IMG/VR virus record: IMGVR_UViG_3300047202_000291
DNA from: a virus
Lineage: Duplodnaviria; Heunggongvirae; Uroviricota; Caudoviricetes
Strand: one strand, 5' to 3'
DNA length: 64,000 bases
A model generated the notes under the pieces. That model saw only the letters and a program-made list of their open reading frames with translations, made no database searches and was not told the origin of the DNA. The translations under genes and the position numbers were made by a program. Positions 4,327 to 63,069 of the stretch are shown here, piece after piece. Each line of letters starts with the position of its first letter. Positions within the stretch are counted from its first letter, which is position 1.

Positions 4327-4339
4327 AGGGTGAGTTTTT

Positions 4340-5254: not shown

Positions 5255-5268
5255 AGGAGGAGATAAAA

Positions 5269-5382: not shown

Positions 5383-5522
5383 TTCAAAAGTAGATTTATG
5401 GCTAAAAAAAAGGAGAAGCCGATACTTGAGGAATGGATTGAAATGATTGAGGATGATATAAAAAATACAGTTAAGGAGATTAAATATTTTATTGAGCATC
5501 CAAAAAACGAGAGGAGATTAAA

Positions 5523-8809: not shown

Positions 8810-9346
8810 TTGGTTAAGACATTCGGGGTGGTTACCATCGTAACCATCTCGGAAATAGCGACTGATTTTGGTTTCAAGGGCTCGAAATTTCATAAATACG
8901 CTGAAATTACTGGTTCTAGGCAGGTTACAATTGATGAGTCGACAGCTTCTGAAAACAACGTCGATACTTCTGTGGATTGCTATGTTGCAGGTACTTATAT
9001 TGGTCGAGATGGTGCAACCATAGAGGTTCGTCAAAGATATACGATCTATGTTTCTTACAGTCGTTCTACACAGAGGATTGCGATGACTAAAGTGCGTGCA
9101 GCAATTATCAATGACTTTGAGCATAATTTTCCAAATTTTCATATCATAGATGTTTTCCTTCCAGAGGAGAAGTTCATTATTCCTTTGGGTAAAGAAGGTC
9201 TGCGTGAATCAGAGGAGTTTTATTATGGGTCTGAGCTGTTTAAAGTGCTTTCACGTCGTGATGTTGGTCGATTCAGGGTCGGAACCGAAAAGGATATATT
9301 TAAGTCCCGTATTAGCCAGATAAAAAGAAGATTTAATTTGAGGTGA
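8810..9346 (+). CDS. Hypothetical protein (non-ATG start, TTG/GTG)
   Basis: 178-aa ORF. Start uncertain; overlaps a shorter minus-strand ORF. Confidence 0.4.
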   Translation: MVKTFGVVTIVTISEIATDFGFKGSKFHKYAEITGSRQVTIDESTASENNVDTSVDCYVAGTYIGRDGATIEVRQRYTIYVSYSRSTQRIAMTKVRAAIINDFEHNFPNFHIIDVFLPEEKFIIPLGKEGLRESEEFYYGSELFKVLSRRDVGRFRVGTEKDIFKSRISQIKRRFNLR

Positions 9347-26182: not shown

Positions 26183-26782
26183 ATGAAACCGAAACTCAGT
26201 ATAAAGTATTATCAGAACGCAGACAAGAATCATCAGGATTCTTTTTGGTATGATGGAGATATTGCATTGCTTAAATATAAGAATCGAGAAGTGCTTGTAG
26301 TCGCTGCAGGCGACATAAGGATTCACAATAAAAGAGGTGAGTTGGTCTATGATTGTAAGCCCCGCAATTCAGGATTTTCATTCAAGCTTGAGCAAGATAA
26401 AGATTTGTATAAGATAGGTAATAATTATGATGATGATTTCTATTGGGAAAATAACAACTGGTTCGAGCTCTTTTATAAGAACAAAGGAGATTCTAATTGG
26501 AATGATATTTTAGGTGATGTTTATTTTGACTATGGTGTTGTAATAAAAGCGGCGAAAGATGCAATTAAGGATGATAAATGGTGGAATGAAACCTGGAATA
26601 AAGCTACCTGTCTTGAGTGTAAGAAGGAGTTTATTCAGGAAAGGGACATTCAGCTTTGTGATGTTTGCATAAAGAAGTTCAATCTTGACAAGCTCTGGAA
26701 AGACCACGACAATAATAAAATTGATGCTCTTGATTTTAATGAGTCTAAAAAGATACGAGAAAAATATAGGGTGAAGAAATAA
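26183..26782 (+). CDS. Hypothetical protein with a C-terminal CxxC...CxxC motif
   Basis: ATG after GAGGT. Confidence 0.55.
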   Translation: MKPKLSIKYYQNADKNHQDSFWYDGDIALLKYKNREVLVVAAGDIRIHNKRGELVYDCKPRNSGFSFKLEQDKDLYKIGNNYDDDFYWENNNWFELFYKNKGDSNWNDILGDVYFDYGVVIKAAKDAIKDDKWWNETWNKATCLECKKEFIQERDIQLCDVCIKKFNLDKLWKDHDNNKIDALDFNESKKIREKYRVKK

Positions 26783-27933
26783 TGGAAGTAACACACGAAC
26801 AGTTGGCTATGCTTATTGAAGAGCACCGAAGGGCAGGGCTTCCTTTGTTTGTTGATGGTGCAACAGGCATCGGTAAATCTGAAGCTGGTATTAAGAGCAG
26901 TAAGATGTATGCTGATAGAATAAGTAGGCAATGGGTTGCTTGGGTTGATCTATCTAATTTAGATAGGCATAAGTTTCTTGATGACAAGGAGATTGTGAAG
27001 GTTCATTTATTCGTTGACATAAGGACGGCTCTTTTGGAACCGACTGACCTTCTTGGTTTGCCGTTTAAGGATGAGCGTGGTTATGTTGCTTGGTTGCCGA
27101 CTCTTCTTTTCAAGATTCTGAGTTTGCCTTCAGTTTCAGCTACTATATTCTTTGACGAATTCAATTTAGGCAGTTTGATGGTCATGAAATCCAGTTATCA
27201 GCTTATTCTTGATAAGGCCATAGGGGAAGTCAAGCTTGGTAAGGATGTTACAATTCTTGCAGCAGGAAACAGGATTGAGGATCGTGCTCACGTTACAGAG
27301 TCTCCAGCTCCATTAAACAATAGGTTTAGCCATTGCACTTTGCTTTGTCCAACTCCAGATGAGTGGATTATGTATAATCTTAAATCAGAATATCCTGAGC
27401 CAAGGCTCGTTTCTTTCATTAAGTTCAAGCCTAAATATATCTTTGACTTTAAGCCTAACCAAAAGGAGAAAGCATTTCCTACTCCGAGGGCGATTCAGCA
27501 GTTGGCTATGTTGCTTAAGGGAAAAGATGAGATGAATGAGCTCGATAATATGACCATGCTCGCCCAGGCGAAATGTGGTGATGCTTTCGGTGCAGAGTTT
27601 CAATCCTTCTTGCGTCTTACGAGGAAGGTTAATGTTGATGAGATTCTAGAGCATCCTGAAAAGGTGCATGAATTTGAAAAACAGCTTGACTTGAAATATT
27701 CATTAATCTCTGGGGTTGCCGTAAGGGTGAAGCAGGACTTCAATAAGATGGAACAGGCCCTCAAAGTTATAGCCGAGCTTGAAGATGAGTATGGTGTCTT
27801 TTTATTGAGAATGATTATTGATATTTGCGGTATGAAGGTGTTGTCCGTCCTTGAGCATAGTAAGACTTGGGAAACCAGGCTCTATGATAAGTTTAAGGAC
27901 ATATTAAGCACGAGATTTGCGCAGGTGAGTTAA
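26782..27933 (+). CDS. MoxR-family AAA+ ATPase
   Basis: Walker A DGATGIGKSE, Walker B IFFDEFN, sensor AAGNR, PLNNRF arginine-finger motif. Confidence 0.8.
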   Translation: MEVTHEQLAMLIEEHRRAGLPLFVDGATGIGKSEAGIKSSKMYADRISRQWVAWVDLSNLDRHKFLDDKEIVKVHLFVDIRTALLEPTDLLGLPFKDERGYVAWLPTLLFKILSLPSVSATIFFDEFNLGSLMVMKSSYQLILDKAIGEVKLGKDVTILAAGNRIEDRAHVTESPAPLNNRFSHCTLLCPTPDEWIMYNLKSEYPEPRLVSFIKFKPKYIFDFKPNQKEKAFPTPRAIQQLAMLLKGKDEMNELDNMTMLAQAKCGDAFGAEFQSFLRLTRKVNVDEILEHPEKVHEFEKQLDLKYSLISGVAVRVKQDFNKMEQALKVIAELEDEYGVFLLRMIIDICGMKVLSVLEHSKTWETRLYDKFKDILSTRFAQVS

Positions 27934-30967: not shown

Positions 30968-32218
30968 ATGGTTGACGAAAATCTCCTTAAAAGCATCAAG
31001 CGTTGTAAGATTGCTTTGCAAAGAGACTATCCTTTTTTCTCAGATCTGCTTTTCTTTATTACTGTGAAAGAGGGTAATGATGAAGTTCCGACAGCTAAGA
31101 TTGATATTCATGGTAACTTGACTTATAATTCGAAGTTTATGGCAGGTCTGAATGATGATGAGAAGAAAGTAGTGATTTGTCATGAAACACTTCATTCGGG
31201 TCTTTTGCATCTCGCAAGGGGTCACAGTATTGTGCAGTCCCCAGAATATTGGGAAATATATAATATTGCCGCAGATGCCGTGACTAATTATATTCTTGCC
31301 GAGAATGGCTTTATGTTTTCTAAGAAGATAACTTCAATCATTCCAGATGTATATGGGAATAATGTTCAGCTCAAGACAGAAAGTGGGACTCTACTCTATA
31401 CTGTTGAAAAGATTAAGGAGAAGACCGTTGAGAAGGTATTTCATGAATTGTGTAAGAATCTCCCGATTACTTATATTAAGGTTCATATAGTCGGTGCTAA
31501 AGGAGATGGATCCGGCATAAAGAGATTCGATATTCATGGCTTTGGCGAAGGCAAAGAGGCTTCTCAAAAAGCAGAAAAGGAATGGAAGCAAAGGCTCATA
31601 AATGCAGTTGCCCGTGCAAAAAGTATAGGTAAGCTTCCTTCAGGAATAGATCGATATGTCGATAAGATTCTTGAGCCGAAAGTTAGATGGCAGGATATTC
31701 TTTATAGGTTCATTACAGAGCAGATGCCTCATGATTATACATATAGGCGCCCTCATAAGCGTTCAGAAGTTCTTGGCTATTATGTTCCGAGTTATGTCAA
31801 GGAGATGCTCAGGGTTGCTTCATTTATAGATACCTCAGGCTCTATTTCACAGCAAGCTATTGCTGAGTTTAAGGCAGAGAATGTCGGCATAGCTCGTGCC
31901 TTTGAGTCCGTCCAGATTCACCTTGGCTATATTGATGTTCAAGTTCACGATGTTCTTGAGGTCACCAATGGCAATACAGATAAGATTGTTGATTTTGTGC
32001 CAAAAGGTGGCGGTGGAACAGACATGCGTAATGTATTTACCTGGCTCGATAGGAATCTTCCAGATGCCGAGCTTGTTGTTATTTTCACAGATGGTTACAC
32101 GCCTTGGCCTAAGCCAGAGCAAATCTGTCAAAGAAAAGTCCTTTGGCTAGTTAATACTAATGAAAAAGTTCCTTCGGGAATCGGTGAGGTGATTCGATAT
32201 GACAGTGAACAGCTTTGA
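30968..32218 (+). CDS. VWA-domain protein with an N-terminal HExxH putative metallopeptidase domain (DUF2201-like); MoxR partner
   Basis: HETLHSGLLH (HExxH). MIDAS DTSGS...GGGTD...TDGY. Confidence 0.75.
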   Translation: MVDENLLKSIKRCKIALQRDYPFFSDLLFFITVKEGNDEVPTAKIDIHGNLTYNSKFMAGLNDDEKKVVICHETLHSGLLHLARGHSIVQSPEYWEIYNIAADAVTNYILAENGFMFSKKITSIIPDVYGNNVQLKTESGTLLYTVEKIKEKTVEKVFHELCKNLPITYIKVHIVGAKGDGSGIKRFDIHGFGEGKEASQKAEKEWKQRLINAVARAKSIGKLPSGIDRYVDKILEPKVRWQDILYRFITEQMPHDYTYRRPHKRSEVLGYYVPSYVKEMLRVASFIDTSGSISQQAIAEFKAENVGIARAFESVQIHLGYIDVQVHDVLEVTNGNTDKIVDFVPKGGGGTDMRNVFTWLDRNLPDAELVVIFTDGYTPWPKPEQICQRKVLWLVNTNEKVPSGIGEVIRYDSEQL

Positions 32219-42965: not shown

Positions 42966-43292
42966 ATGGCAGCAACTTTGTTTTGGATGGATATGATTCG
43001 GGACAGGTTGATTTCTTATCCTTATAAAAATAAGGAAGAAAAGAAACTTATCAGTAATTTTATGGCTCCGGTTATTTTAATGGGGGTCGAAGCAGAGCGC
43101 GATCTTAACAAAAGCCTCAAACAGTCTTTACGTGAAACCAAGCATGATTGTGGGGCAGCCTCAAAGATTCTGATTAAGGAATTAATGCATGTTGATAAAT
43201 CTATAATTGCTAAAAAGCCTAATTGTATTTTCTGTGGAAAGCCTCTTGATAAGCATAGTGGAAATTGCAAGGTGAAGCCTAGTGACTTATAA
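42966..43292 (+). CDS. Hypothetical protein with a CxxC...C motif
   Basis: ATG ORF on the + strand. Confidence 0.5.
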   Translation: MAATLFWMDMIRDRLISYPYKNKEEKKLISNFMAPVILMGVEAERDLNKSLKQSLRETKHDCGAASKILIKELMHVDKSIIAKKPNCIFCGKPLDKHSGNCKVKPSDL

Positions 43293-43596
43293 ATCTGATT
43301 TGAACTGGGAAGTTATGTTGGCAGCATTTATGTTAGGTTCAGCTTTTATCCAAGGAATTGTAAATGGCTCTTTGACAATATTTATTTTCTTTTTTATGCC
43401 TTCTTTGGCGTTGGTGATTTTACAATATCGAAGAACTGTCATTCTTCCTTCAAGGCAAGCACATCTGGAGTTAAAATCAGCCTTAGATGAAATCGATAAG
43501 ATTAAAAGAAGCCAAAGCGATGCGCCAAAGCATAGCTTAGCCGATATGAAGAAAATAACCAAAAGAGCAAAATCAAAAAGGGTGAAGTCAAAATGA
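43282..43596 (+). CDS. Membrane protein
   Basis: TM helices. Confidence 0.5.
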   Translation: MTYKSDLNWEVMLAAFMLGSAFIQGIVNGSLTIFIFFFMPSLALVILQYRRTVILPSRQAHLELKSALDEIDKIKRSQSDAPKHSLADMKKITKRAKSKRVKSK

Positions 43597-43931
43597 ACAT
43601 CTTATTTTTGGTGGCATTGGCTGTTGTTATAATTGTCTATGTTCTCATTAGTCGAAAGGAGACAAAGGAAGCCATTAAAAAGACAACCCCAAAGGAAGAC
43701 GCCGGAAAATTCTTCCATCATTTTTCTCAAACTTTAATTTATCTATTTATATTAATGATATGGGGTTTGCGTTGGATCTTCGGCATTTTCAAGGTCTTCA
43801 TTAATTGGTATAAGTCTAAACCAAAAAAAGAAGAGGAGAAAAAGCCAAATAAGCAGCCAAAAGGAACTTTATGGTGTCCTCGATGCCAGAAGTTTTTCAA
43901 AAAAGATCATGCTTGTTTCAAAGGGGGATAA
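43593..43931 (+). CDS. Membrane protein with a C-terminal CxxC
   Basis: TM helices. Confidence 0.5.
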   Translation: MNILFLVALAVVIIVYVLISRKETKEAIKKTTPKEDAGKFFHHFSQTLIYLFILMIWGLRWIFGIFKVFINWYKSKPKKEEEKKPNKQPKGTLWCPRCQKFFKKDHACFKGG

Positions 43932-43932
43932 A

Positions 43933-44358
43933 ATGGAAAAAACAAATATTAAGAAAAAAAGAAAAGAACTTGTTGTTCCAAAGCCTCCAGTCATACATTC
44001 AGGGACAACTCCTCTGAGCGTAGCAAATTCTTCGCAAATAAAATCATCTAATCGATTAACCGTGGGTCAATGGGCTTTTGTGTTTTTGATTGCAGCTTGT
44101 ATTCTATTGTTATATTTAGTGGTTACTGGCGGGTTCATTCATATGAAAGAAGCTTCGGCTAATAAGAGGGTGTCTGTTTATGGCGAGAATGGGGCGCTCA
44201 ATGAAATTTCATGTGCAGATATTTGCGATAGCCATAATTATGTTACTATTGGAGTTGCACACGGTGTCGAGACTAATCGTAATCCAGTATGCTTTTGTGT
44301 TGAGAGTATAGCATATGAAAAGAAAACAGAAAATAAAATATGGACATTTACCATATAA
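43933..44358 (+). CDS. Membrane-anchored Cys-containing protein
   Basis: ATG at 43933. Confidence 0.5.
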   Translation: MEKTNIKKKRKELVVPKPPVIHSGTTPLSVANSSQIKSSNRLTVGQWAFVFLIAACILLLYLVVTGGFIHMKEASANKRVSVYGENGALNEISCADICDSHNYVTIGVAHGVETNRNPVCFCVESIAYEKKTENKIWTFTI

Positions 44359-44371
44359 GCGAGGTGGAAAA

Positions 44372-44965
44372 ATGGAAGTAAGCAAAGGTTGGGTTGTTGG
44401 AATAACTATAACGGCCATATTGTTGTTTCTTATATTTACATCAATAGGCTGGGTCGTCGGCTTCTATAATAAGATGGTTGTAGCAAGGCAGGACATTGAT
44501 ACGCAGTTCAGCAACATAAAGACAGAGTATCAGAGAAGGGCAGATCTCTTTGTCAATCTTGTTGAAGTCGCGAAAGGTTATGCAAATTTCGAGCAGGATA
44601 CATTAGTTGAAGTTACCAAGATGCGTAATCTTAATTTCGCAGGGCTTCAAGGAACAAAGGAAGAGCAGATGGCTCAGCTTAATGGCATAGAAGGCACTTT
44701 GTCAAGGTTGTTGGTTGTGCTTGAGAAATATCCCGAATTGAAGACGGTTGAGCTTTATACTAAGCTCCACGACCAAATTCGTTCAACAGAGGATAGGATA
44801 CAGATTGCTCGTTCGGACTACAACGGCATTGTTAGGAGCTATAACATTCAGAGACAAAGATTCCCGAATGTTCTGCTTGCAAATATAATGGGCTTTGCTC
44901 AGGAGAAATACTTTGAGAACCAGCCCGGAACAGAGCAGGCACCCGTAATAAATGCAACAATTTAG
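44372..44965 (+). CDS. lemA: LemA-family protein
   Basis: N-terminal TM then YQRRADLFVNLVEVAKGYANFEQ...R. SD GAGGTGG upstream. Confidence 0.7.
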   Translation: MEVSKGWVVGITITAILLFLIFTSIGWVVGFYNKMVVARQDIDTQFSNIKTEYQRRADLFVNLVEVAKGYANFEQDTLVEVTKMRNLNFAGLQGTKEEQMAQLNGIEGTLSRLLVVLEKYPELKTVELYTKLHDQIRSTEDRIQIARSDYNGIVRSYNIQRQRFPNVLLANIMGFAQEKYFENQPGTEQAPVINATI

Positions 44966-44972
44966 GATTAAA

Positions 44973-45365
44973 ATGAAAGGAACTTACTTTGCAGTTTATT
45001 GTGCAGTATTGGGTTTCATCCTATTTTTAAGCCTGATGTATATGATTTCGAGTTTTAGCGCAACAGGCTATTATGTGGTTGAAACCCATACAACTCCTTT
45101 CGCATTGCCGACAACACAGGTTGTTTCCCAGGTTCCAGAAAAGCCGCAGGAAATCCAGCATTATGAGCAGATGCGTGATGACATTGTGAAGCAAGAGGAA
45201 GGGATTTCTGCAAATATCAGCCAGGAATTTAATGTGACACAGAACATTATTGAGTTTTATAATCAGATGGCTGGGAAATTTTCTGGTTGGATTACTGTAA
45301 CCACGATAATATTATTCATATTGGTCTTTTTCAAAGGTTTTGCGAAAGGAATATGGCGTTGGTGA
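44973..45365 (+). CDS. Small membrane protein, paralog A
   Basis: Shares PEKPQEIQHYEQMRDDIVKQEEGIS with the next gene. Confidence 0.55.
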   Translation: MKGTYFAVYCAVLGFILFLSLMYMISSFSATGYYVVETHTTPFALPTTQVVSQVPEKPQEIQHYEQMRDDIVKQEEGISANISQEFNVTQNIIEFYNQMAGKFSGWITVTTIILFILVFFKGFAKGIWRW

Positions 45366-45369
45366 AATT

Positions 45370-45750
45370 ATGAAAAAGAAAAACTTCATTTTATATTGCA
45401 GTGGCCTTGGAGTCCTTGTTTTAATAGGTTTCATAATGATGTTAGTCGGCCTTAACTCCACTTATTATGTTAAGGGAACTTACACGACAGTTAAATATGT
45501 TCCAGATAAGCCTCAGGACATGCAGCATTATGAGGCTGCGCGTGACAGCATCGTTAAACAGGAAGAGGGCATTAATCAAGATATAAATAATTGGAATACT
45601 TCAAGCGTCACTTCTATGAGTGAGATGTTTAGTGTGACTATGGCGACGGTAGTAACCGGAGTTGGTTCTTTTGCAAGCTTGATAGTCTTGCTGATTGTCC
45701 TTGGATTTATAGTTGGATTATTCATAAAATTATCAACATTGTTTAAATAA
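45370..45750 (+). CDS. Small membrane protein, paralog B
   Basis: PDKPQDMQHYEAARDSIVKQEEGIN. Confidence 0.55.
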   Translation: MKKKNFILYCSGLGVLVLIGFIMMLVGLNSTYYVKGTYTTVKYVPDKPQDMQHYEAARDSIVKQEEGINQDINNWNTSSVTSMSEMFSVTMATVVTGVGSFASLIVLLIVLGFIVGLFIKLSTLFK

Positions 45751-45765
45751 AACGGAGGGTGTAAA

Positions 45766-46734
45766 ATGGAAGAAGATTTAAGGAAAGTAATGAAGATTGT
45801 CCTTACGGGAGGAGTGATTTTGATATTTATAATCCTGTTTTTTGGGACATTCTATACAATACAGTCGGGTCAGGAGGGTATTCTTTTGACTTTCAATAAG
45901 GCAGCGCCAGCAGGTATTCAGCCAGGGCTTCATCTGAAGTTTCCATTGATCCAGAGAATTGTGAAATTCAATGTCAGGACGCAGGCTTACGGCGCTAGCG
46001 GAACTGAAAACACATTGGAAAGTGCAGCATCATCAGATCTTCAGCAAGTGAAGATGCAGTTGGTTGTGAATTACCATTTAACTGCGGGTAGAGTTCCCGA
46101 GTTGTTCACAAACGTAGGGCCTGCTTATGAAGATACTGTTATTAGGCCAACAGTTCATGAAGCAACAAAGGCTTGTACAGCGAAATTTGCGGCAGTGGAG
46201 CTAATTAATAAGAGAGAGGACGTAAGTGTTTGTATGAGCGATTTGTTGAAGGGGAAACTAGGTATATATAATATAGTGGTTGAGCAGGTATCAATCACGG
46301 CCTTTGATTTCAGTGAGCAATTCAACAACGCTATCGAACAAAAAGTAACAGCAGAGCAGGATGCATTGAAAGCAAGGAATAAGCTTGAGCAGATTAAGAT
46401 GGAAGCTGAGCAAGTTCGTGCGGCTGCAGCAGGGCAAAGGGACGCTAAGATAGCTACTGCTGAGGGAGAGGCTCAATATATCAAGCTCATTCAGGAGCAG
46501 CTTATAAGGAGTCCTCAATACATTGAGTATGTGAAAGCAAAGCAGTGGAATGGTGTGTTGCCTCAATTTTATATGAGTGGCAGCAGTAATCCGTTGATCA
46601 TGCAGTTGCCTAGCTTGACATCGAGTAGCTTGACTGCTTCGAGCAGCGGGTATGTGCCGGTGGAGGTTCCATTGACTATGCCTGGTGAGATTATTGCACA
46701 TGGTACGAATGCGACAAATTCAACCAAAGCTTGA
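45766..46734 (+). CDS. SPFH/band-7 (prohibitin/HflK-like) membrane protein
   Basis: N-terminal TM; GQEGILLTFNK...PGLHLKFPLIQ...VQLVVNYHL; C-terminal coiled coil. Confidence 0.75.
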   Translation: MEEDLRKVMKIVLTGGVILIFIILFFGTFYTIQSGQEGILLTFNKAAPAGIQPGLHLKFPLIQRIVKFNVRTQAYGASGTENTLESAASSDLQQVKMQLVVNYHLTAGRVPELFTNVGPAYEDTVIRPTVHEATKACTAKFAAVELINKREDVSVCMSDLLKGKLGIYNIVVEQVSITAFDFSEQFNNAIEQKVTAEQDALKARNKLEQIKMEAEQVRAAAAGQRDAKIATAEGEAQYIKLIQEQLIRSPQYIEYVKAKQWNGVLPQFYMSGSSNPLIMQLPSLTSSSLTASSSGYVPVEVPLTMPGEIIAHGTNATNSTKA

Positions 46735-46819
46735 ACTTAATCAAGAGCAGTCAATATTTGAAACTTTTTTTTCAATTTTTCCAGTTTTTCTTTTATCTGG
46801 GTTGATCGGGGTGATAATT

Positions 46820-47011
46820 ATGGTAGCTGAGCGAGTTAAGAGGAAAGTCAGTCAAGCGACAAATGTAGCTGGGAAAATCTTGGCTGATTGGAAAATTGGA
46901 GAGCCAAAGCAACAGGAGGATTTTGTTGCCTATTTGTTTAAGCAATGGCAATTTTGGGTAATCCTCATAGTCTTGCTTTTGGTATTTGTCCTGGCAATAT
47001 TAAACAGTTAA
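46820..47011 (+). CDS. Small membrane protein
   Basis: ATG after GGGGTGATAATT; the start could lie upstream (TTG/GTG). Confidence 0.4.
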   Translation: MVAERVKRKVSQATNVAGKILADWKIGEPKQQEDFVAYLFKQWQFWVILIVLLLVFVLAILNS

Positions 47012-47024
47012 ACGAGGTGTTTAA

Positions 47025-47570
47025 ATGAAAGCTAGAATAGGAAATGTGGAATTTGAAGTATATAGTGAAGAAGATTTGAAGCTTCTTTCTAAATTTACTG
47101 AAGACAAAAAATTATTCGAAAAGATAGAGAAAACAAAAGAGACAGAAAAAGCAAGAAAAACGCATATCGTCCCTCACTTAATAACAGGAAAGTTGCTTAG
47201 TAGGGATAATAGAATTGCTCAAGCAGTAAAACTTTCAGAGAAAGAAGGCATTGCGCTTGGTCCAGCTTGCCAAAAGCTTGGTTTCTATGCTTGCGGGATA
47301 GACTATAAACGAGCAGTAGAAAAGTTTGGTTATAAAAAAGGACATTATAGGAAAAGGAAACCTAAGCTGGTTATTCTCGATAGTTTGCCTAATATAAAAG
47401 GCAGGCGAAAGAGTAAATGGTGGACTAAAAAGGAAAAGGCTTTTCTTGATAAGGCAAGGCACGATTTGCCCGTAGGTAAGATTGCCAAGCTCTTGAAAAG
47501 GTCTTCAGCAGCAGTAAGGTGTCAGATATGGCTTTTGCAGCATCCAGAAATGCCAAAGAGTAGAAAATGA
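47025..47570 (+). CDS. Basic hypothetical protein
   Basis: ATG ORF on the + strand. Confidence 0.6.
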   Translation: MKARIGNVEFEVYSEEDLKLLSKFTEDKKLFEKIEKTKETEKARKTHIVPHLITGKLLSRDNRIAQAVKLSEKEGIALGPACQKLGFYACGIDYKRAVEKFGYKKGHYRKRKPKLVILDSLPNIKGRRKSKWWTKKEKAFLDKARHDLPVGKIAKLLKRSSAAVRCQIWLLQHPEMPKSRK

Positions 47571-47851
47571 AACAAGGACAGGTAGTTGTTGATTTTTTAG
47601 TTACCTATGGTTGGGCTATTTTAGTGATCCTTATAGCGATAGGGGCCCTGGTTTATTTCGGAGTTTTAGGTCCGCATCCAAAACAACCAGAAAAAACAGG
47701 TTTATTTGACACAAAATTCGGAGTGCTTAACTGCAGTGATTCGTATTACGTTCAGGATTGTGGTGTGTTCCTGAGTAGATGTAGGAACAATGATTCAACC
47801 ATAGATAATTCGACCCATGTGTGTTTGGTTGATGTAAAGATAATCAAATAG
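47567..47851 (+). CDS. Type-IV pilin-like protein with an archaeal class-III signal peptide
   Basis: MKQG|QVVVDFLVTYGWAILVILIAIGALVYF follows the KG|Q...(E/D)FL hydrophobic-stretch pattern. Confidence 0.5.
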   Translation: MKQGQVVVDFLVTYGWAILVILIAIGALVYFGVLGPHPKQPEKTGLFDTKFGVLNCSDSYYVQDCGVFLSRCRNNDSTIDNSTHVCLVDVKIIK

Positions 47852-47888
47852 ATGGTGGTGACTTTATGCAGAGTCTTATGAGGTAAAT

Positions 47889-48134
47889 ATGGCTAAAAAA
47901 AAACAGCAGAGCATCTGGAGATTTTGGTGGGTGGCTTTAATTGTCATTCTGATTCTTGCCGGAATCTCTGAAATATCGAATCGTATGTCTAGGCATACTC
48001 GGTGTGTGCAGGAAGAGAATGTATGCTATAAAACTGAATGCTCTTTTTGGGGCTGTGGAAAAATCAAGGTAGATATTAACTCTTCGGCCTGTGAGATAAA
48101 GGCAAAAGAATGCACACTTTTTGAGGTGAAATAA
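47889..48134 (+). CDS. Membrane-anchored Cys-rich protein
   Basis: TM helix plus six Cys. Confidence 0.5.
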   Translation: MAKKKQQSIWRFWWVALIVILILAGISEISNRMSRHTRCVQEENVCYKTECSFWGCGKIKVDINSSACEIKAKECTLFEVK

Positions 48135-48355
48135 TGGCTATGAAATGCAAAAAATGTAATGGAATAATTCCAGACATTATGCCGCTTGGCGAGGATAGGG
48201 GCGATTGTAAGAATCATAGAAAGCGAAAGCCAGATATTAATTTTTTTAAACCAACTAAGATTGAAAGAGAATGTATTTGGATAGGAACTGGTTTGAGTGC
48301 TTTTATAATATTTTTGTCAATAATTTGTATGATTATATTGACTTCGGGAGGTTGA
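48134..48355 (+). CDS. Small protein with a CxxC and a C-terminal TM
   Basis: ATG ORF on the + strand. Confidence 0.45.
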   Translation: MAMKCKKCNGIIPDIMPLGEDRGDCKNHRKRKPDINFFKPTKIERECIWIGTGLSAFIIFLSIICMIILTSGG

Positions 48356-48359
48356 TTTT

Positions 48360-48719
48360 ATGATAAGGTGGGAAATAATAATATTATTGGGGCTTGTAGT
48401 TATAGATGTTGCGATGACCTATATTTTGATGTATTTCCTTAAGGAAAAGCTTCATGTTAAGGACTATTATAAGTATGAGCGTAACCCGATTGTGAAGAGG
48501 TTTGTCGCAAAACATGGGCTGCATAAAGGCATCAGGCTTTCCTTTGTCTGGTCTATTGTAATGTGGTTTATCGTTATAATATATCTTAGTATTAGGGTCA
48601 ACTGGTTTGACTTTTCGAGGATGATCTTTCTTGCTATTGGTATTTATGTGATGATGAACACAATACATTTTTATACTTTGCAGGAAGTCCTTGCTCAAGT
48701 TAAGAAGAAAAAAAGGTGA
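48360..48719 (+). CDS. Membrane protein
   Basis: Three TM helices. Confidence 0.55.
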   Translation: MIRWEIIILLGLVVIDVAMTYILMYFLKEKLHVKDYYKYERNPIVKRFVAKHGLHKGIRLSFVWSIVMWFIVIIYLSIRVNWFDFSRMIFLAIGIYVMMNTIHFYTLQEVLAQVKKKKR

Positions 48720-59109: not shown

Positions 59110-59198
59110 AGGTGCGTAGCTCAACAAAAGAGCACCAGGCCTTTTATCAATGAAAGAAACCTGCGAGGTTGCGAGTGAGAATCTCGTCGCGCCCACCA
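59110..59198 (+). tRNA. tRNA-like element with encoded 3' CCA, preceded by GGTGCGTA x3 (identity unresolved)
   Basis: 3' CGCGCCC-A-CCA; D-arm GCTC-AACAAAA-GAGC; T-arm GCGAG-TGAGAAT-CTCGT. Anticodon region irregular. Confidence 0.3.
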
Positions 59199-59200
59199 TT

Positions 59201-59274
59201 GGGGTTGTGGGGTCTTAACAGAAACCTGTCGGTCTCCAGAACCGAAGATCCGTGTGCGAATCACGGCAATCCCA
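59201..59274 (+). tRNA. tRNA-Trp (CCA)
   Basis: Acceptor GGGGTTG/CAATCCC; anticodon arm TCGGT-CTCCAGA-ACCGA; T-arm CCGTG-TGCGAAT-CACGG. Confidence 0.7.
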
Positions 59275-59284
59275 TTTTTTTAAA

Positions 59285-59356
59285 GGGCTCTGGGTAGGGA
59301 AGCGACACGCCTCGCTTGCAACGAGGAAACAGCGCGAGCATTACGCGCAGAGTCCA
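59285..59356 (+). tRNA. tRNA-Ala (TGC)-like
   Basis: Acceptor GGGCTCT/AGAGTCC; anticodon arm CCTCG-CTTGCAA-CGAGG; T-arm GCGCG-AGCATTA-CGCGC (atypical loop). Confidence 0.35.
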
Positions 59357-59416
59357 TTATTTGTAATCATTACAAAAAATAATGATTAATAATCATATCG
59401 CGAAAAAAAGTTATAT

Positions 59417-59499
59417 GCGCAGTTGGGGAAGCGGTCAAACCCGCTCCGCTTAGGACGGAGTGCCTAGCGCTACCACAGGTTCGAATCCTGTACTGCGCA
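59417..59499 (+). tRNA. tRNA-Leu (TAG), type II
   Basis: Acceptor GCGCAGT/ACTGCGC; anticodon arm CTCCG-CTTAGGA-CGGAG; 14-nt variable arm; T-arm ACAGG-TTCGAAT-CCTGT. Confidence 0.8.
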
Positions 59500-59501
59500 T
59501 C

Positions 59502-59617
59502 GCGGACGTGTCCGAGCGGCCGAAGGAGCCAGATTCAAATAAAGGCTAAACTTAAAGCCATCGGAGAAATCTGGTGCTAAGTGCATAACAACAGCGGTTC
59601 AACTCCGCTCGTCCGCA
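59502..59617 (+). tRNA. tRNA-Leu (CAA) with an ~30-nt intron at 37/38
   Basis: Acceptor GCGGACG/CGTCCGC; anticodon stem CCAGA...TCTGG flanks TTCAAA plus a hairpin-containing insert; long variable arm; T-arm AGCGG-TTCAACT-CCGCT. Confidence 0.7.
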
Positions 59618-59621
59618 GTTT

Positions 59622-59706
59622 GCTGTGGTAGGACAACAGTAGTCCAGCTGGCCTGTAAAAAAAATCAAGTAACCAGCCAATCCCGATGCAACTTCGGGCC
59701 GCAGCT
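59622..59706 (+). tRNA. tRNA with a ~14-nt intron (anticodon probably TGT/Thr)
   Basis: Acceptor GCTGTGG/CCGCAGC; D-arm GGAC-AACAGTA-GTCC; anticodon stem GCTGG/CCAGC flanks 21 nt; T-arm CCCGA-TGCAACT-TCGGG. Confidence 0.5.
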
Positions 59707-59764
59707 TATTAATATTTCAGGCTTAAAATGTTAATCAGAAATTCCTTATTAATATTAGTGATAT

Positions 59765-59836
59765 GGAACAGTGGCCAAGCAGTAAGGCGCGAAGCTGCAA
59801 TCTTCGTATGCGAGAGTGCAATCCTCTCCTGTTCCT
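59765..59836 (+). tRNA. tRNA-Cys (GCA)
   Basis: Acceptor GGAACAG/CTGTTCC; anticodon arm CGAAG-CTGCAAT-CTTCG; T-arm GAGAG-TGCAATC-CTCTC. Confidence 0.7.
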
Positions 59837-59838
59837 TT

Positions 59839-59983
59839 GCCCGGATGATTGGGGAATCTGGTAATCCCGCTGGTCCGCTAATGCCCAGAATCGAATGGCT
59901 TAGCCCAGAATTGAATTTTGGACTTGCCCAGAATGGAACACCAGGATCGAAAGGTCATCTCGGTTCGAATCCGAGTCCGGGCG
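59839..59983 (+). tRNA. tRNA with a ~65-nt intervening sequence containing 3x GCCCAGAAT (identity unresolved)
   Basis: Perfect acceptor GCCCGGA/TCCGGGC; canonical T-arm CTCGG-TTCGAAT-CCGAG; D-arm region with GG. Confidence 0.45.
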
Positions 59984-60506
59984 TATGATTCAGAGTAAAC
60001 CATATGTGAAGACAGTGAATTATCATTGCCTTAGATGTAAATCTTAATAAATCGCATTTTAAGAGAGACTCGACGGTGATCTGTAAGACCTGTGGTTCAG
60101 AGCGTCGATGGAACCAAAAAATTTAAATATAAGTGTATGCTACAACATAAAGGATACTTGGTTTCCTTCATGCTTTCGATGCAAGGCCCGGGGAGAGCCT
60201 CAATCTCCTCATTTATATTCATTGAATAGCGGCTTCGGAAAAGGGGCTGATAACAACAGGCGAGGCTGTTGATAACCCAGTCGCTCAAAAATTCAGGTGA
60301 TTTACTTTCAATGTTAAACATGGAACAGAACGGACTGAGCATCGGAAGAACCGGGCGAACTCAAAGGAGATATATCGCCGGTTGCTTTGGGCATCAAGTA
60401 GACCAGCCCATAGTCCAATAGGCCTCTTCTGTTCCATAACAGCTTCTAAAAATTTGTGGACATTCCATTGGTTGTTTTGGAACAGCCAGAGTTCTATTCG
60501 GATTAT

Positions 60507-60578
60507 ACGGACTTAGTAGAATAGCTAGCACGCAGGGCTCATAACCCTGAGAAGGTGGCGCAATTCCACCAGTCCGTA
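60507..60578 (+). tRNA. tRNA-Met/Ile2 (CAT)
   Basis: Acceptor ACGGACT/AGTCCGT; anticodon arm CAGGG-CTCATAA-CCCTG; T-arm GGTGG-CGCAATT-CCACC; weak D-stem. Confidence 0.55.
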
Positions 60579-60606
60579 GTTATTCACACTTAACTATGAT
60601 ATGTTC

Positions 60607-60679
60607 CTGCGCTTGGTGTAACAGCTTAGCACAATTGGCCGTAGCCCAATTAGAACCGGTGCAATTCCGGTAGCGCAGA
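60607..60679 (+). tRNA. tRNA-Tyr (GTA), short variable arm (archaeal/eukaryal type)
   Basis: Acceptor CTGCGCT/AGCGCAG; anticodon arm ATTGG-CCGTAGC-CCAAT; 4-nt variable region; T-arm ACCGG-TGCAATT-CCGGT. Confidence 0.65.
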
Positions 60680-60681
60680 TT

Positions 60682-60754
60682 GGCCTCATGGTGTAACAAG
60701 TCAACATGTAAGCCTGTCAAGCTTACGCTTCGGATGCAAGATCCGATGAGGCCG
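60682..60754 (+). tRNA. tRNA-Asp (GTC)
   Basis: Acceptor GGCCTCA/TGAGGCC; anticodon arm TAAGC-CTGTCAA-GCTTA; T-arm TCGGA-TGCAAGA-TCCGA. Confidence 0.75.
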
Positions 60755-60823
60755 TTGCAGGCGTAGCTAAGCAGTCACAGCACGCAGATATGCAAAATTA
60801 TTTAAATAAGCATCATATCACAT

Positions 60824-61285
60824 ATGAATATGATGTGGAAAACATGGAAAAGAATTAGTAGGGGAGAATATTGGTTTGCAAAGATTCCAGAGCATCCTAA
60901 TGCAGATAAGAATGGATATGTGCTCGAGCATAGGATTATTATGGAAAATTTGCTAAATAGAGTATTGCAATCATCAGAAATTGTTCATCATGAAAATAAA
61001 AATACAAAAGATAATCGACCTGAAAATTTAAAATTGATGAATAAAGGAATCCATGCTAGAGAACACAATTTAGAAAGGGGGAGGATTTTTGTAAAATTAA
61101 GATGTCCTAATTGTGGAAAACAATTTATAAAGGCAAAAAATCAAACCCATCTAACAGCAAAAAGAAATTCAGCCACTTTTTGTTCATTAAAGTGTTCTGG
61201 AAAGCACAAGCACAATTACGAGCCCAATATTATTGAAGTATTCAAAACAAAAAATTCCGGAACACGAGATAAAGCAAAAATATGA
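60824..61285 (+). CDS. HNH homing endonuclease (HNH_3 family), AT-rich insert within the tRNA array
   Basis: GYVLEHRIIMENLLNR...EIVHHENKNTKDNRPENLKLM...HAREH. Confidence 0.8.
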   Translation: MNMMWKTWKRISRGEYWFAKIPEHPNADKNGYVLEHRIIMENLLNRVLQSSEIVHHENKNTKDNRPENLKLMNKGIHAREHNLERGRIFVKLRCPNCGKQFIKAKNQTHLTAKRNSATFCSLKCSGKHKHNYEPNIIEVFKTKNSGTRDKAKI

Positions 61286-61294
61286 TTCTTTTCT

Positions 61295-61407
61295 GCAGGT
61301 GTGTCCAAGCGGTCAAGGAGCCCGACTGATACGTCAAGTGTCCGGGAATTATATGTCCCCTTGACTAAGAGTTCGGGAAAGCGCAGGTTCGATTCCTGCC
61401 ACCTGCA
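61295..61407 (+). tRNA. tRNA-Ile (GAT) with a 40-nt intron at 37/38
   Basis: Acceptor GCAGGTG/CACCTGC; CCCGA-CTGATA|intron|T-TCGGG; T-arm GCAGG-TTCGATT-CCTGC. Confidence 0.65.
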
Positions 61408-61411
61408 TTTT

Positions 61412-61484
61412 GCTCCTGTAGTTAGCCTGGTTAATCACACCGGACTTTCAATCCGGAGCTCGAGTCCAAATCTCGACAGGAGTA
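61412..61484 (+). tRNA. tRNA-Glu (TTC)
   Basis: Acceptor GCTCCTG/CAGGAGT; anticodon arm CCGGA-CTTTCAA-TCCGG; T-arm TCGAG-TCCAAAT-CTCGA. Confidence 0.6.
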
Positions 61485-61485
61485 T

Positions 61486-61559
61486 GGGGTCGTAGTGTAG
61501 TTTGGTATCATCCTTCGCTTGGGACGAAGTGATCCTGCGTTCGAATCGCAGCGACCCCA
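61486..61559 (+). tRNA. tRNA-Pro (TGG)
   Basis: Acceptor GGGGTCG/CGACCCC; anticodon arm CTTCG-CTTGGGA-CGAAG; T-arm CTGCG-TTCGAAT-CGCAG. Confidence 0.75.
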
Positions 61560-61611
61560 TTCAGTTGATTATAACAACAAATATGATGATTTCGGTTGAG
61601 AATAGAAATGC

Positions 61612-61683
61612 GCGGAGGTAATTTAGTAGTAAAATGCTTCGTTGCCAACGAAGATAGCGTGGGTGCGATCCCCACCTTCCGCA
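61612..61683 (+). tRNA. tRNA-Gly (GCC)
   Basis: Acceptor GCGGAGG/CTTCCGC; D-arm ATTT/AAAT; anticodon arm CTTCG-TTGCCAA-CGAAG; T-arm GTGGG-TGCGATC-CCCAC. Confidence 0.7.
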
Positions 61684-61728
61684 TTAGATAAAAAATATAT
61701 GAAGTATGGAAAAATCTCCATACATTAT

Positions 61729-61801
61729 TGGCGCGTAGTGAAACAGACGATCACGGCAGCCTTCTAAGCTGCAGTTCCGGATGCAACTTCCGGCGTGCCA
61801 A
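61729..61801 (+). tRNA. tRNA-Arg (TCT)
   Basis: D-arm GTGA/TCAC; anticodon arm GCAGC-CTTCTAA-GCTGC; T-arm CCGGA-TGCAACT-TCCGG; acceptor TGGCGCG/CGTGCCA (one GU pair). Confidence 0.65.
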
Positions 61802-61803
61802 TT

Positions 61804-61877
61804 GCGCGCATCGGCTAATCAGGATATGTCGTCCAGCTACGGACTGGAAGGTGTGGATTCAAATTCCACTGCGCGCT
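61804..61877 (+). tRNA. tRNA-Arg (ACG)-like
   Basis: Acceptor GCGCGCA/TGCGCGC; anticodon arm TCCAG-CTACGGA-CTGGA; T-arm GTGGA-TTCAAAT-TCCAC; D-arm irregular. Confidence 0.5.
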
Positions 61878-61878
61878 T

Positions 61879-62121
61879 ATGAAATTTGAACAGCATTGCA
61901 AAAAAAGTAAGAGGCTCTTCAACGAAGATGGAGCTCTCTTTCATAGATGGATTGATATGTTCGCAGCAGAGGAAGGATATGCGCACAGGCATATCTTGCA
62001 TACATTCAAAGGAATGATACTTGGAATAGAGATATTTGGAGAAGCTGCAGGAAAGCACCTTGAGCAGCACATAAGGGATGACTTGCAATTAAAGAAGAAA
62101 GATGAGCTTCCAATATTTTAA
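61879..62121 (+). CDS. Hypothetical protein (His-rich), abutting the tRNA 3' end
   Basis: ATG 2 nt after the tRNA; 80 aa. Confidence 0.4.
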   Translation: MKFEQHCKKSKRLFNEDGALFHRWIDMFAAEEGYAHRHILHTFKGMILGIEIFGEAAGKHLEQHIRDDLQLKKKDELPIF

Positions 62122-62168
62122 ACACCTCTGAACCTGGAAACACCAGCGCGCATCTGGTCGGCGGAATT

Positions 62169-62240
62169 GAGGTCTTAGCTTAGCTAGGAGAGCACATGAC
62201 TGAAGCTCATGCTACCTGGGTGCAATTCCCAGAGACCTCA
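62169..62240 (+). tRNA. tRNA-Phe (GAA)
   Basis: Acceptor GAGGTCT/AGACCTC; D-arm GCTT/GAGC; anticodon arm CATGA-CTGAAGC-TCATG; T-arm CTGGG-TGCAATT-CCCAG. Confidence 0.75.
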
Positions 62241-62244
62241 TCCA

Positions 62245-62736
62245 ATGTACGACAAATATAAAATAATAGCGACCAAGGAAGAGTATTATGCAACTTGGGA
62301 TCGGGAGAACGTAGATATGCTTAGCGAGAGCCTCAAGGAGATGATCTATCAAAAATATTTCCTTAAGTGCATCGTCTTCCAGCGTGACAATTTTAAATGC
62401 CAGAATGAGCATTGCAAGCACGCAGATAACAGATTAACTTTACATCATATCAAGTTCAAGAAGAATAATGGTAAGGATAAGCCAAAAAATGCAGTTACTC
62501 TTTGCAAGTCATGCCATAATGCATATCACCAAGGCAAGACCATGTTGACCTTTTGGGGAATGACTTATCGGATTCAGAAGCAGGAAGGAGAAATAAATTG
62601 GAAGGCCCAGAAGGCAAAAGGCAAAACCATCAGGACTGAAAACAGAGAACATTGTGGCTTCAAAATAAGTTGGAAGCTTTTAGCTATATTGATGAGATTC
62701 CTTGAAAGAGAATATACGGAGTTGGATGATGACTGA
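62245..62736 (+). CDS. HNH endonuclease (start trimmed to the first ATG after the tRNA)
   Basis: CQNEHCKHADNRLTLHHIKFKKNNGKDKPKNAVTLCKSCHNAYH. The track start at 62209 lies inside tRNA-Phe. Confidence 0.65.
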   Translation: MYDKYKIIATKEEYYATWDRENVDMLSESLKEMIYQKYFLKCIVFQRDNFKCQNEHCKHADNRLTLHHIKFKKNNGKDKPKNAVTLCKSCHNAYHQGKTMLTFWGMTYRIQKQEGEINWKAQKAKGKTIRTENREHCGFKISWKLLAILMRFLEREYTELDDD

Positions 62737-62832
62737 GACAATCAATGAGCTGTATGATAGGCTAGGCTTACATAAATGGTGGCAAGAGCCTTTGCCAGAA
62801 AATAGCATCATAAATGATTTACCACTATAGAC

Positions 62833-62903
62833 GCGCTGCAGATGTTGAAGTAGCATACCTGCCTTCCAAGCAGGGTGGATGGGTGCGATTCCCATGCGGC
62901 GCA
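62833..62903 (+). tRNA. tRNA-Gly (TCC)
   Basis: Acceptor GCGCTGC/GCGGCGC; D-arm ATGT/GCAT; anticodon arm CCTGC-CTTCCAA-GCAGG; T-arm ATGGG-TGCGATT-CCCAT. Confidence 0.7.
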
Positions 62904-62904
62904 T

Positions 62905-62978
62905 ATGCGAGTAGTGTAACAGTTTATGCACGACAGACTGTGACTCTGTAAGATTGGGTGCAACTCCCAGCTCGCATA
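62905..62978 (+). tRNA. tRNA-His (GTG)
   Basis: Anticodon arm ACAGA-CTGTGAC-TCTGT; T-arm TTGGG-TGCAACT-CCCAG; acceptor ATGCGAG/CTCGCAT. Confidence 0.55.
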
Positions 62979-62980
62979 TT

Positions 62981-63069
62981 GGGCGAATGGTCCAATCCGG
63001 AACACGACGCCTGGCTAACAAATATTTTTAGAATCCAGGAAGCTCAAGGTTCAAATCCTTGTTCGCCCA
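62981..63069 (+). tRNA. tRNA with a ~13-nt intron (anticodon unresolved, possibly AAC)
   Basis: Acceptor GGGCGAA/TTCGCCC; anticodon stem CCTGG/CCAGG flanks 20 nt; T-arm CAAGG-TTCAAAT-CCTTG. Confidence 0.45.

Follow-up and report, generated by a model that had tools for sequence, protein, structure and literature searches.

A membrane-protein island with LemA, SPFH and pilin-like proteins in a large virus of a probable DPANN archaeal host

What use could a large virus have for a run of small membrane proteins set around LemA and SPFH, and do these genes belong together? The question is raised by the virus record IMGVR_UViG_3300047202_000291 (IMG/VR), of which one stretch of 64,000 nucleotides, here called the window, was analyzed. 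An earlier note on this DNA had described the genes at 44372-47851 as a membrane-remodelling module made of LemA, two paralogous small proteins, an SPFH protein and a pilin-like protein. The genes are as the note had them, and the membrane run itself is larger. It extends from 43282 to 48719, where 12 of 14 consecutive genes encode transmembrane (TM) proteins. Our overall reading, favored tentatively and held at a little below even confidence, is that this is an accessory island of membrane proteins acting on the membrane and surface of the infected cell. The parts are of known kinds, since the LemA and SPFH families are already recorded in cultured phages, and for this reason the core finding of the note is correct but unsurprising. 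The combination is not previously described. What is new is a family of LemA partners with an H-Y-E-x-x-R-D motif (HYE-RD), a recurrent SPFH-prepilin neighborhood, and an island of twelve membrane-protein genes in a large virus whose host is probably a DPANN archaeon. Loci fetched for comparison are cited by their L numbers.

The membrane-protein island and its inheritance

The island consists of the following genes (lengths in amino acids, aa).

43282..43596, + strand, small membrane protein of 104 aa with a basic C-terminal tail, first gene of the island (hydropathy scan)
43593..43931, + strand, 2-TM protein of 112 aa with a C-terminal CxxC...HxC motif (hydropathy scan)
43933..44358, + strand, bitopic protein of 141 aa with a basic N-terminus, one TM segment and a 4-Cys C-terminal domain
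44372..44965, + strand, LemA, 197 aa, N-terminal TM anchor and helical-bundle domain (PF04011)
44973..45365, + strand, HYE-RD paralog A, 130 aa: TM1, disordered linker, short H-Y-E-x-x-R-D helix, TM2
45370..45750, + strand, HYE-RD paralog B, 126 aa, with one DUF285/PARCEL-like repeat (residues 62-88)
45766..46734, + strand, prohibitin-type SPFH/Band_7 protein, 322 aa: N-terminal TM, SPFH domain, coiled coil, Ser/Thr-rich tail
46700..47011, + strand, 2-TM protein of 103 aa with an 'FKQWQxW' TM module
47025..47570, + strand, soluble basic protein of 181 aa, no TM segment, with a C-terminal W-x-K-K-E...W region resembling a helix-turn-helix (HTH)
47567..47851, + strand, pilin-like protein of 94 aa: MKQG/QVVVDF leader, hydrophobic helix, 4-Cys tail with 3 sequons
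47889..48134, + strand, bitopic protein of 81 aa: N-terminal TM and 6-Cys ectodomain
48134..48355, + strand, tail-anchored protein of 73 aa: N-terminal Cys-rich (CxxC) zinc-ribbon-like region and C-terminal TM
48360..48719, + strand, polytopic membrane protein of 119 aa, 2-4 TM depending on threshold, no family match

The hydropathy scan found TM proteins at a frequency of 22% across the window, and a permutation test over any 14-gene window gave p = 2e-5 for the clustering in the island, which is thus established. Intergenic gaps range from -35 to +37 nt, all genes are on a single strand, and a ribosome-binding site of the GGAGGTG/GGTGA type precedes each gene. The window sequence recurs on a 117-kb contig of the Joint Genome Institute (JGI) and on a 34-kb Logan contig. 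Independent gene calls on the latter (offset 35765) agree with all five genes named in the earlier note. The "several small TM proteins" that the note placed between the SPFH and pilin-like genes are in fact one 2-TM protein (46700) and one soluble protein (47025).

Two contig groups hold 18-28 genes in common with this part of the window. L166/L185 represent the same virus and L002/L003 a sister virus (116-kb contig); the relatives are contigs of 58-169 kb. The gene order of L166/L167/L185 comprises LemA (93% identical), both paralogs, an 89-aa insert, SPFH, the HTH-like gene, the pilin-like gene and a homolog of the 48360 gene. The SPFH protein of L166/L185 is divergent, with 45% identity (tblastn on L185). 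L002/L003 carry the upstream TM genes, SPFH (65% identity), related small TM proteins, and the HTH-like, pilin-like and 48360 homologs. Orthologs of the 43282 protein (50-56% identity) and of the 43593 protein (62-71%) are present in L002 and L185; for the 43933 protein the L002 match is weak, and a family scan gave no match. The N-terminal part of the 48134 protein is 81% identical in L002. Small TM modules are shuffled among proteins between the sister viruses, and the 'FKQWQxW' module of the 46700 protein is reused among L002 proteins. The most conserved gene of the island is 48360, with 87-90% identity across the window, L002 and L166, versus 50-65% for its neighbors. A Y-E-R-N-P motif is present in the 48360 protein, whose gene is under the strongest constraint in the island and is also the one understood least.

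The soluble protein at 47025 is probably a regulator and not a membrane component. It has a weak match to phrog_323 'transcriptional regulator' (E 6e-5), and its C-terminal part is 65-75% identical in L002 and L185. This conserved part (KWWTKKE-AFLDKARH-LP---IAKLLKRS---VRCQIWLLQHPE) resembles an HTH of the Myb/SANT type. The stop codon of the gene overlaps the start of the pilin-like gene (ATGA), and the gene pair is retained in L002 and L166.

The relatives bear on whether the island is a unit at all. A somewhat unlikely alternative is that the island is a loose collection of independently acquired, 'moron'-like accessory membrane genes in an insertion-tolerant region, which, apart from the LemA-HYE-RD pair, would not work together. 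L002/L003 fit this alternative: no LemA or HYE-RD gene lies within 6 kb of their SPFH, and synteny is preserved in the flanking genes. The divergent SPFH of L166 beside a nearly identical LemA suggests replacement, TM segments are shuffled between the small proteins, and the contexts of viral SPFH genes are very diverse. The clustering of TM proteins far beyond chance argues against it. From the comparison of L166 with L002, it follows that the island is kept as a region and that LemA and its partners are gained or lost as a block. The note's proposal of a functional module is supported for the recurrent neighborhoods described below, including the LemA-HYE-RD cassette in seven lineages, and fails for inheritance as a single unit.

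LemA and the HYE-RD family

The LemA assignment is firm. The protein at 44372 matches PF04011 with 148.1 bits (cutoff 26.2, E 2e-43) over profile positions 1-147 of 149. A TM segment spans residues 2-33, and residues 32-193 align to PDB 2ETD, 'lemA protein' (E 1.5e-33). A role is known for just one LemA member, MamQ, which is required to build the magnetosome membrane (PMC4902198). The window protein belongs to the same family; it scores 102.2 bits against the MamQ equivalog NF040966 (NCBIfam), below the cutoff of 250, and is therefore not a MamQ ortholog. Magnetosome genes are also absent.

The genes at 44973 and 45370 encode paralogs, as the note had proposed, with 36% identity (BLASTP, E 3e-22) and a TM segment at each end of both proteins. 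Their H-Y-E-x-x-R-D motif is invariant among 15 HYE-RD sequences. The family is small, with only 14 clusters found when 5.8 billion proteins were searched with a profile. All members with a readable context stand next to LemA, directly downstream or, in L168, as the second gene downstream. This arrangement is found in seven virus lineages: the window (2 copies), L166/L185 (2 copies), L168, L169, L170, L171 and L186. Across 2.35 Mb of fetched loci, translated in six frames, the motif occurs only in open reading frames (ORFs) adjoining LemA. The LemA genes of the other virus-like HYE-RD contigs are 45-53% identical to that of the window. A scan of IMG/VR gave no family member, and a metagenome scan added one new lineage (L186) and one duplicate. 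HYE-RD is a previously undescribed family of LemA partners, strictly linked to LemA in putative archaeal viruses.

In other viruses, the cassette is flanked by MCM/RusA, by MT-A70/YopX/resolvase, or by TrmB. L168, a 51-kb virus-like contig with the cassette and RusA, carries at 1-1820 an MCM helicase split by a LAGLIDADG intein, which was counted toward an archaeal host.

The position of the HYE-RD genes recalls a known operon. In the canonical LemA-TPM (YgcG/DUF477) arrangement, as in the island, a TM-anchored LemA is followed by one or two small membrane-anchored partners. It occurs in the cellular Gracilibacteria locus L030, in an Acinetobacter record and in 11 of 13 IMG/VR LemA loci; these more distant viral LemA proteins are 34-40% identical to that of the window. 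A TPM_phosphatase gene lies directly downstream of LemA in L030, L172-L174, L179 and L182. The clearest canonical loci have the order LemA, TPM_phosphatase protein, Cys-rich zinc-ribbon-like protein, and glycine-rich TM protein. Because distant LemA loci carry TPM at the same place, the HYE-RD proteins hold the position of the TPM partner. Unlike the canonical partners, they lack TPM, have 126-130 aa with two TM segments and the H-Y-E-x-x-R-D motif, and are found only on virus-like contigs. Neither 44973 nor 45370 matches TPM (PF04536) in Pfam even at E <= 10, and searches of the HYE-RD proteins against Pfam and NCBIfam models at the same threshold gave nothing useful. The idea that they are degenerate TPM proteins was rejected, since there is no profile similarity and the loop has only ~55-65 residues.

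An AlphaFold2 (AF2) model of 44973 has a mean predicted local distance difference test (pLDDT) score of 62 and places the motif, at low confidence, on a short helix between the disordered linker and TM2. Paralog B carries in addition a DUF285/PARCEL unit of 27 residues (29.6 bits, cutoff 25; TIGR02167, E 3.5e-5), present in a single copy. The unit, at window positions 45553-45633 (NWNTSSVTSMSEMF), is the source of the JGI name 'surface protein'. It is missing from paralog 44973 and from the L166 ortholog. Since DUF285/PARCEL surface proteins are defined by tandem repeats of W-x-T-S-x-V-T-x-M-x-x-M-F and the repeat here is single and non-conserved, identification of 45370 as a BspA-like surface protein was rejected.

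SPFH and pilin-like proteins

The membership of the 45766 protein in the SPFH family is equally firm (PF01145, 107.1 bits, cutoff 23.6, E 1e-30; TM at residues 5-35). The note had called it prohibitin-like with a coiled-coil tail. Its best solved relatives are the prohibitin 1/2 cage complexes (E ~1e-22), and the alignment runs through the coiled coil to about residue 262. It does not reach the HflK and HflC equivalogs of NCBIfam (46 and 36-45 bits, cutoffs 134-660), and none of ten neighboring proteins scanned matches an NfeD partner of the stomatin-NfeD type. The Ser/Thr-rich tail carries N-x-S/T sequons. SPFH proteins form 24-mer cages, as cited in PMC10936438. The island protein shares the N-terminal TM, SPFH domain and coiled coil of prohibitins and HflK/HflC, and differs in being encoded by a single gene, with no hetero-pair and no FtsH partner. 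To our knowledge, archaea generally lack FtsH.

The note considered SPFH and LemA uncommon in viruses. They are, yet both are documented there. SPFH occurs in 257 of 50,697 GenBank phage records, including Halorubrum viruses, and in at least 178 IMG/VR stretches; LemA occurs in 40 of the same phage records and in 13 IMG/VR loci. One record, L187 (CAKLQH020000003.1, 'Acinetobacter phage MD-2021a', 240 kb), contains gltB/gltD, lemA-ygcG-DUF477, ppdD and O-antigen ligase. It resembles a bacterial chromosome and not a phage, so the counts of LemA in phages are inflated by it. SPFH homologs (phrog_200) are found in phages of Klebsiella, Escherichia, Halorubrum, Fusobacterium and Acinetobacter, and LemA homologs (phrog_1383) in Enterococcus Schiekvirus and Listeria phages. 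In contrast to the island, the cultured-phage proteins show 26-38% identity, LemA stands alone in the one phage inspected (Enterococcus vB_OCPT_Ben), and SPFH and LemA were not seen there together with HYE-RD or pilin-like partners.

LemA lies within 6 kb of SPFH in the window lineage, in L169 (169-kb contig), and in L174, L176 and L179. In the cellular Gracilibacteria locus L030, of the Candidate Phyla Radiation (CPR), SPFH is directly upstream of LemA-TPM. We found no paper on a LemA module with SPFH or TPM. A comparable cluster is pspA-ydjGHI of B. subtilis. There, PspA is brought to the membrane by the SPFH protein YdjI, which is required for this step and acts together with YdjH (TPM) and YdjG (zinc ribbon) (PMC8581546, PMC11237479). 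Common to both clusters are an SPFH scaffold, a membrane-associated protein built of helices, and small membrane proteins as partners. In the island, LemA takes the place of PspA, and homology of the two is not known. The island SPFH protein is TM-anchored, of the prohibitin type and probably extracytoplasmic, unlike the cytosolic YdjI, and interaction within the island is only predicted.

SPFH genes of viruses also recur beside prepilin genes. We compared the 80 best IMG/VR SPFH loci (16 kb each) with 80 cellular SPFH loci (0.84 Mb). In 10 of the 80 viral loci, a bacterial prepilin (KKG/FTLIELLVV; 42-105 aa, Cys-containing tail) begins 0-420 bp after the SPFH stop codon. These loci are L100, L101, L115, L123, L125, L132, L145, L151, L152 and L162, with the pair at about 8770-9220 or equivalent. 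No such prepilin ORF was found elsewhere in those loci, and none in the cellular loci. In a neighbor-joining tree, the ten SPFH genes are spread over at least six separate positions within the CPR-bacterial part; the pairing is therefore not that of one recent lineage. In the window lineage, the SPFH-pilin pairing has the archaeal form of the signal, with the two genes one to five genes apart. The recurrence of LemA-SPFH proximity in unrelated viruses and a CPR genome, together with that of SPFH-prepilin adjacency, argues against the loose collection discussed above.

A related observation concerns the TPM proteins. In five viral loci, on contigs of up to 364 kb, the TPM protein that follows LemA begins with a prepilin-type leader:

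L172, 6591-7154, prepilin-leader TPM
L175, 6663-7217, prepilin-leader TPM
L182, 6533-7321, prepilin-leader TPM
L183, 6559-7335, prepilin-leader TPM
L184, 6541-7332, prepilin-leader TPM

The N_methyl motif was confirmed by Pfam in both proteins scanned (L172, L182). The leader implies export via a type IV/type II-like route. In L172 and L174-L176, a Cys-rich zinc-ribbon-like protein and a Gly-rich TM protein follow the TPM gene.

The protein at 47567 was described in the note as having a pilin-like class III N-terminus. An exhaustive phmmer search of 1.84 billion representatives (E <= 1e-3) matched 2168 clusters. The matches begin at query residue 1-2, lie at the very N-terminal end of the targets, and show 55-65% identity across ~45 residues. 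The aligned consensus is M-(K/R)-(K/R)-G-Q-A-A-M-E-F-L-M-T-Y-G-W-A-I-L-V-V-L-x-A-I-G-A-L-A-Y-F-G-V-L-x-P, in which Y-G-W-A is invariant and two cysteines are conserved. Because the homologs share this N-terminus and the class III signal consensus, an ordinary TM helix was rejected as an explanation. Pilins of Methanococcus processed by EppA have a short leader ending in Gly, Gln at +1 and Glu at +5, and some subunits have 67-76 aa (PMC3875500). Checked against this cleavage rule, the Gly-ending leader and Gln at +1 fit in the window (MKQG/Q) and in L002 (MKKG/QSAIIEF); L166 reads SKG/SAMGEF. At +5 the window protein has Asp, also acidic, in place of the Glu found in nearly all of 28 aligned homologs, and its N-terminus MKQG/QVVVDF has one residue deleted relative to the consensus QAAMEF. 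The AF2 model has a helix at residues 3-30 (pLDDT 89-93 for residues 11-30), a mean pLDDT of 63 and an unreliable tail.

By motif and homology, the protein appears to be an archaeal class III signal, Epd/EppA-type pilin-like protein. It resembles Epd-type pilins such as M. maripaludis MMP1685 and the minor pilins in its short basic leader ending in Gly, Gln at +1, acidic +5 residue, hydrophobic helix and small size, 94 aa in the window. It differs in its Asp, in matching no Pfam or NCBIfam pilin model, in being virus-encoded, and in having no assembly ATPase, platform protein or peptidase near it. Among 29 family members, only isolated model matches were obtained (TafC fimbrial protein, E 3e-9; UpsA, 0.02; Pilin_N, 0.04). 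A PDB profile search with the family gave insignificant matches only, and tblastn of a canonical member against plasmids and phages gave no match.

These findings bear on the proposal that the island is a device for superinfection exclusion or receptor masking, in which the host's type IV filaments, probably used by viruses as a receptor, would be poisoned by the pilin-like protein and the envelope changed by the remaining surface-exposed proteins. We consider it quite unlikely. It would account for the pairing of SPFH and prepilin in viral loci and in none of the cellular ones, for small proteins that are fast-evolving and shuffled, as expected of conflict genes, and for ectodomains with Cys pairs and glycosylation sequons. 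The PADLOC defence models, however, gave zero matches for ten island proteins at E <= 0.01, SPFH and LemA have no experimental precedent in exclusion, and processing of the pilin-like protein is predicted from its N-terminal residues.

Genome, host and possible role of the island

The window contains ~157 short ORFs, every one on the + strand, with a GC content of 0.38 and a strongly positive GC skew. The following features lie outside the island.

within 154-7105, + strand, Kelch-repeat protein of 1328 aa
4340, + strand, ATP-dependent DNA ligase
6356, + strand, eukaryotic-type topoisomerase IB (within 154-7105)
16599-17450, + strand, second, separate ATP-dependent DNA ligase
26782-27933, + strand, MoxR-like AAA ATPase (phrog_1297, E 5e-59)
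30968-32218, + strand, DUF2201 metallopeptidase/VWA protein (phrog_1314, E 9e-74)
59110-63069, + strand, tRNA array with at least 16 tRNA genes (Rfam)
62209-62736, + strand, HNH endonuclease inside the tRNA array

The neighbors of the island include HNH, ligases, topoisomerase IB, the AAA ATPase with the VWA protein, MazG and HIRAN domains, and the tRNA array. The Kelch protein, two ATP-dependent ligases and eukaryotic-type topoisomerase IB form an unusual replication and repair set for a prokaryotic virus. The AAA ATPase and DUF2201/VWA genes, 3 kb apart, resemble a MoxR/VWA-type pair, and both have phage-family relatives. In the tRNA array, small ORFs are interspersed, GC content rises to 0.42-0.44 and GC skew falls.

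We treat the window as part of a large virus of at least 117 kb, although it holds no hallmark genes within its 64 kb. Pfam and PHROG scans of 30 further large ORFs gave no capsid or terminase gene and mostly no match, and blastn of the region against GenBank phages gave zero matches. That hallmark genes are absent and that SPFH and LemA are common in cells would suit a plasmid, another extrachromosomal element or a variable region of a small archaeal genome, with the island serving ordinary membrane housekeeping. This origin is highly unlikely. The short co-directional ORFs mostly have no family match, and no ribosomal or other housekeeping gene appeared among ~50 scanned against profile libraries. 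The tRNA genes stand in one array, and the relatives are contigs of the same style. The matches to phrog_1297, 1314, 200 and 1383 and the HNH, MazG and Ea47-like domains also speak against it.

The absence of particle genes also bears on a further alternative, namely that the island encodes proteins of the virion's own lipid membrane, either an envelope or an internal one. Viruses with a membrane of this kind encode their small TM proteins in one block, and the dozen small TM proteins of the island, some bearing ectodomains rich in Cys, are likewise contiguous. In addition, 'virion structural protein' is the label of the LemA-like family phrog_1383 and also the RefSeq annotation for LemA in Enterococcus phage EFDG1. 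The same phage LemA is mostly annotated 'LemA family protein', however, and lies among nucleotide-metabolism genes. SPFH and LemA are close to cellular housekeeping versions, and the genome style, with its length and tRNA array, is that of a large tailed virus. As capsid, portal and packaging genes are not nearby, we regard a virion membrane as improbable. The island and the cassette sit among replication and accessory genes, which argues for a role in the infected cell over one in the particle.

The host is most likely an archaeon, with a DPANN lineage of the Woesearchaeota or Nanoarchaeota type as the best reading. The closest cellular SPFH contigs are labelled Nanoarchaeota, Woesearchaeota and Aenigmatarchaeota, with CPR bacteria further off, and the window and L002 SPFH proteins nest within the archaeal part of the neighbor-joining tree, among DPANN-labelled sequences. 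The archaeal affinity as such is taken as shown. A 47%-identical SPFH homolog lies on a 503-kb contig with archaeal markers. The tRNA-Ile(GAU) gene at 61295-61407 has a 41-nt intron at the canonical 37/38 site, of the archaeal type; a virus-encoded, intron-containing tRNA indicates an archaeal host with splicing endonuclease. The precursor folds with an extended, bulged anticodon arm.

We return to the favored reading of an accessory island acting in the infected cell. The twelve membrane proteins would be expressed in the infected cell and inserted in its cytoplasmic membrane. The SPFH protein, of the prohibitin type and taken over from the host lineage, would assemble by way of its coiled coil into oligomeric rings or cages, enclosing patches of membrane in the manner of HflK/C and prohibitins. 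LemA and the two HYE-RD proteins may form a complex analogous to LemA-TPM, and the set of LemA, HYE-RD and SPFH would then resemble the PspA-YdjG/H-YdjI membrane-stress module of Bacillus. The pilin-like protein could be cut by the host class III signal peptidase and enter or block the host type IV filament machinery. The net effect would be an envelope and surface stabilized and remodelled, possibly including a block to further infection through pili. The purpose may thus be envelope maintenance, surface remodelling or exclusion of further viruses. The Cys-rich, sequon-bearing ectodomains of several members point to the outer face as the main site of action. The label of membrane remodelling, as given in the note, would follow by analogy with MamQ and SPFH cages.

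Several observations, beyond the lack of LemA and HYE-RD in the sister virus, weigh against this reading. L168, L170, L171 and L186 carry the cassette, and SPFH is not in their fetched flanks. Since all genes of the window run in one direction with little space between them, the mere fact that two are neighbors says little about co-function. By prediction, the motif lies on one side of the membrane in one HYE-RD subfamily and on the other side in the second, and the orientation of LemA is ambiguous. No curated Pfam (PF04021/PF07790) or NCBIfam model matches the window pilin-like protein, its leader has just 4 residues, with Asp at +5 and the basic residue at -3 instead of -2, and no prepilin-peptidase candidate (polytopic GxGD protein) is present in the window. 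The structure models of 47567 and 44973 have low confidence, and their helices alone are confident. The identity as a virus is built on genome style and PHROG matches, with no capsid or terminase within 64 kb. Finally, the host assignment draws in part on labels of metagenome-assembled genomes, which are not fully reliable, and some of the closest contigs are labelled 'Methanosarcinales'. Because several such contigs cluster tightly with Woesearchaeota, these labels were not relied on. Reports of Epd-type filament systems come mostly from Methanococcales, Methanobacteriales, Thermococcales and DPANN, a further line toward a DPANN-like host, and the Methanosarcinales labels were rejected as a guide to the host.

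A further step is speculative and, like exclusion, has a small probability. Viruses of DPANN archaea and of CPR bacteria, two groups of ultra-small episymbionts, may each independently have combined an SPFH scaffold derived from the host with a tiny pilin of their own, written in the prepilin 'dialect' of the respective host, the archaeal lineage having added the LemA cassette with its virus-specific HYE-RD partner. If true, this would be a viral takeover of the type IV filament or cell-surface apparatus that these organisms use for attaching to their own hosts.

The present value of the island is that of a well-defined lead, with functional roles that are predicted only. LemA is very widespread and has one member, MamQ, with a known role; the compact viral cassette is a tractable system for studying what LemA binds and does. 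The recurrence of SPFH-prepilin and LemA-SPFH neighborhoods suggests that SPFH scaffolds are connected with the biology of type IV filaments or of the cell surface in a way not described before. DPANN viruses are almost unknown, and an example of at least 117 kb, with tRNA genes and host-like membrane genes, would add to their picture.

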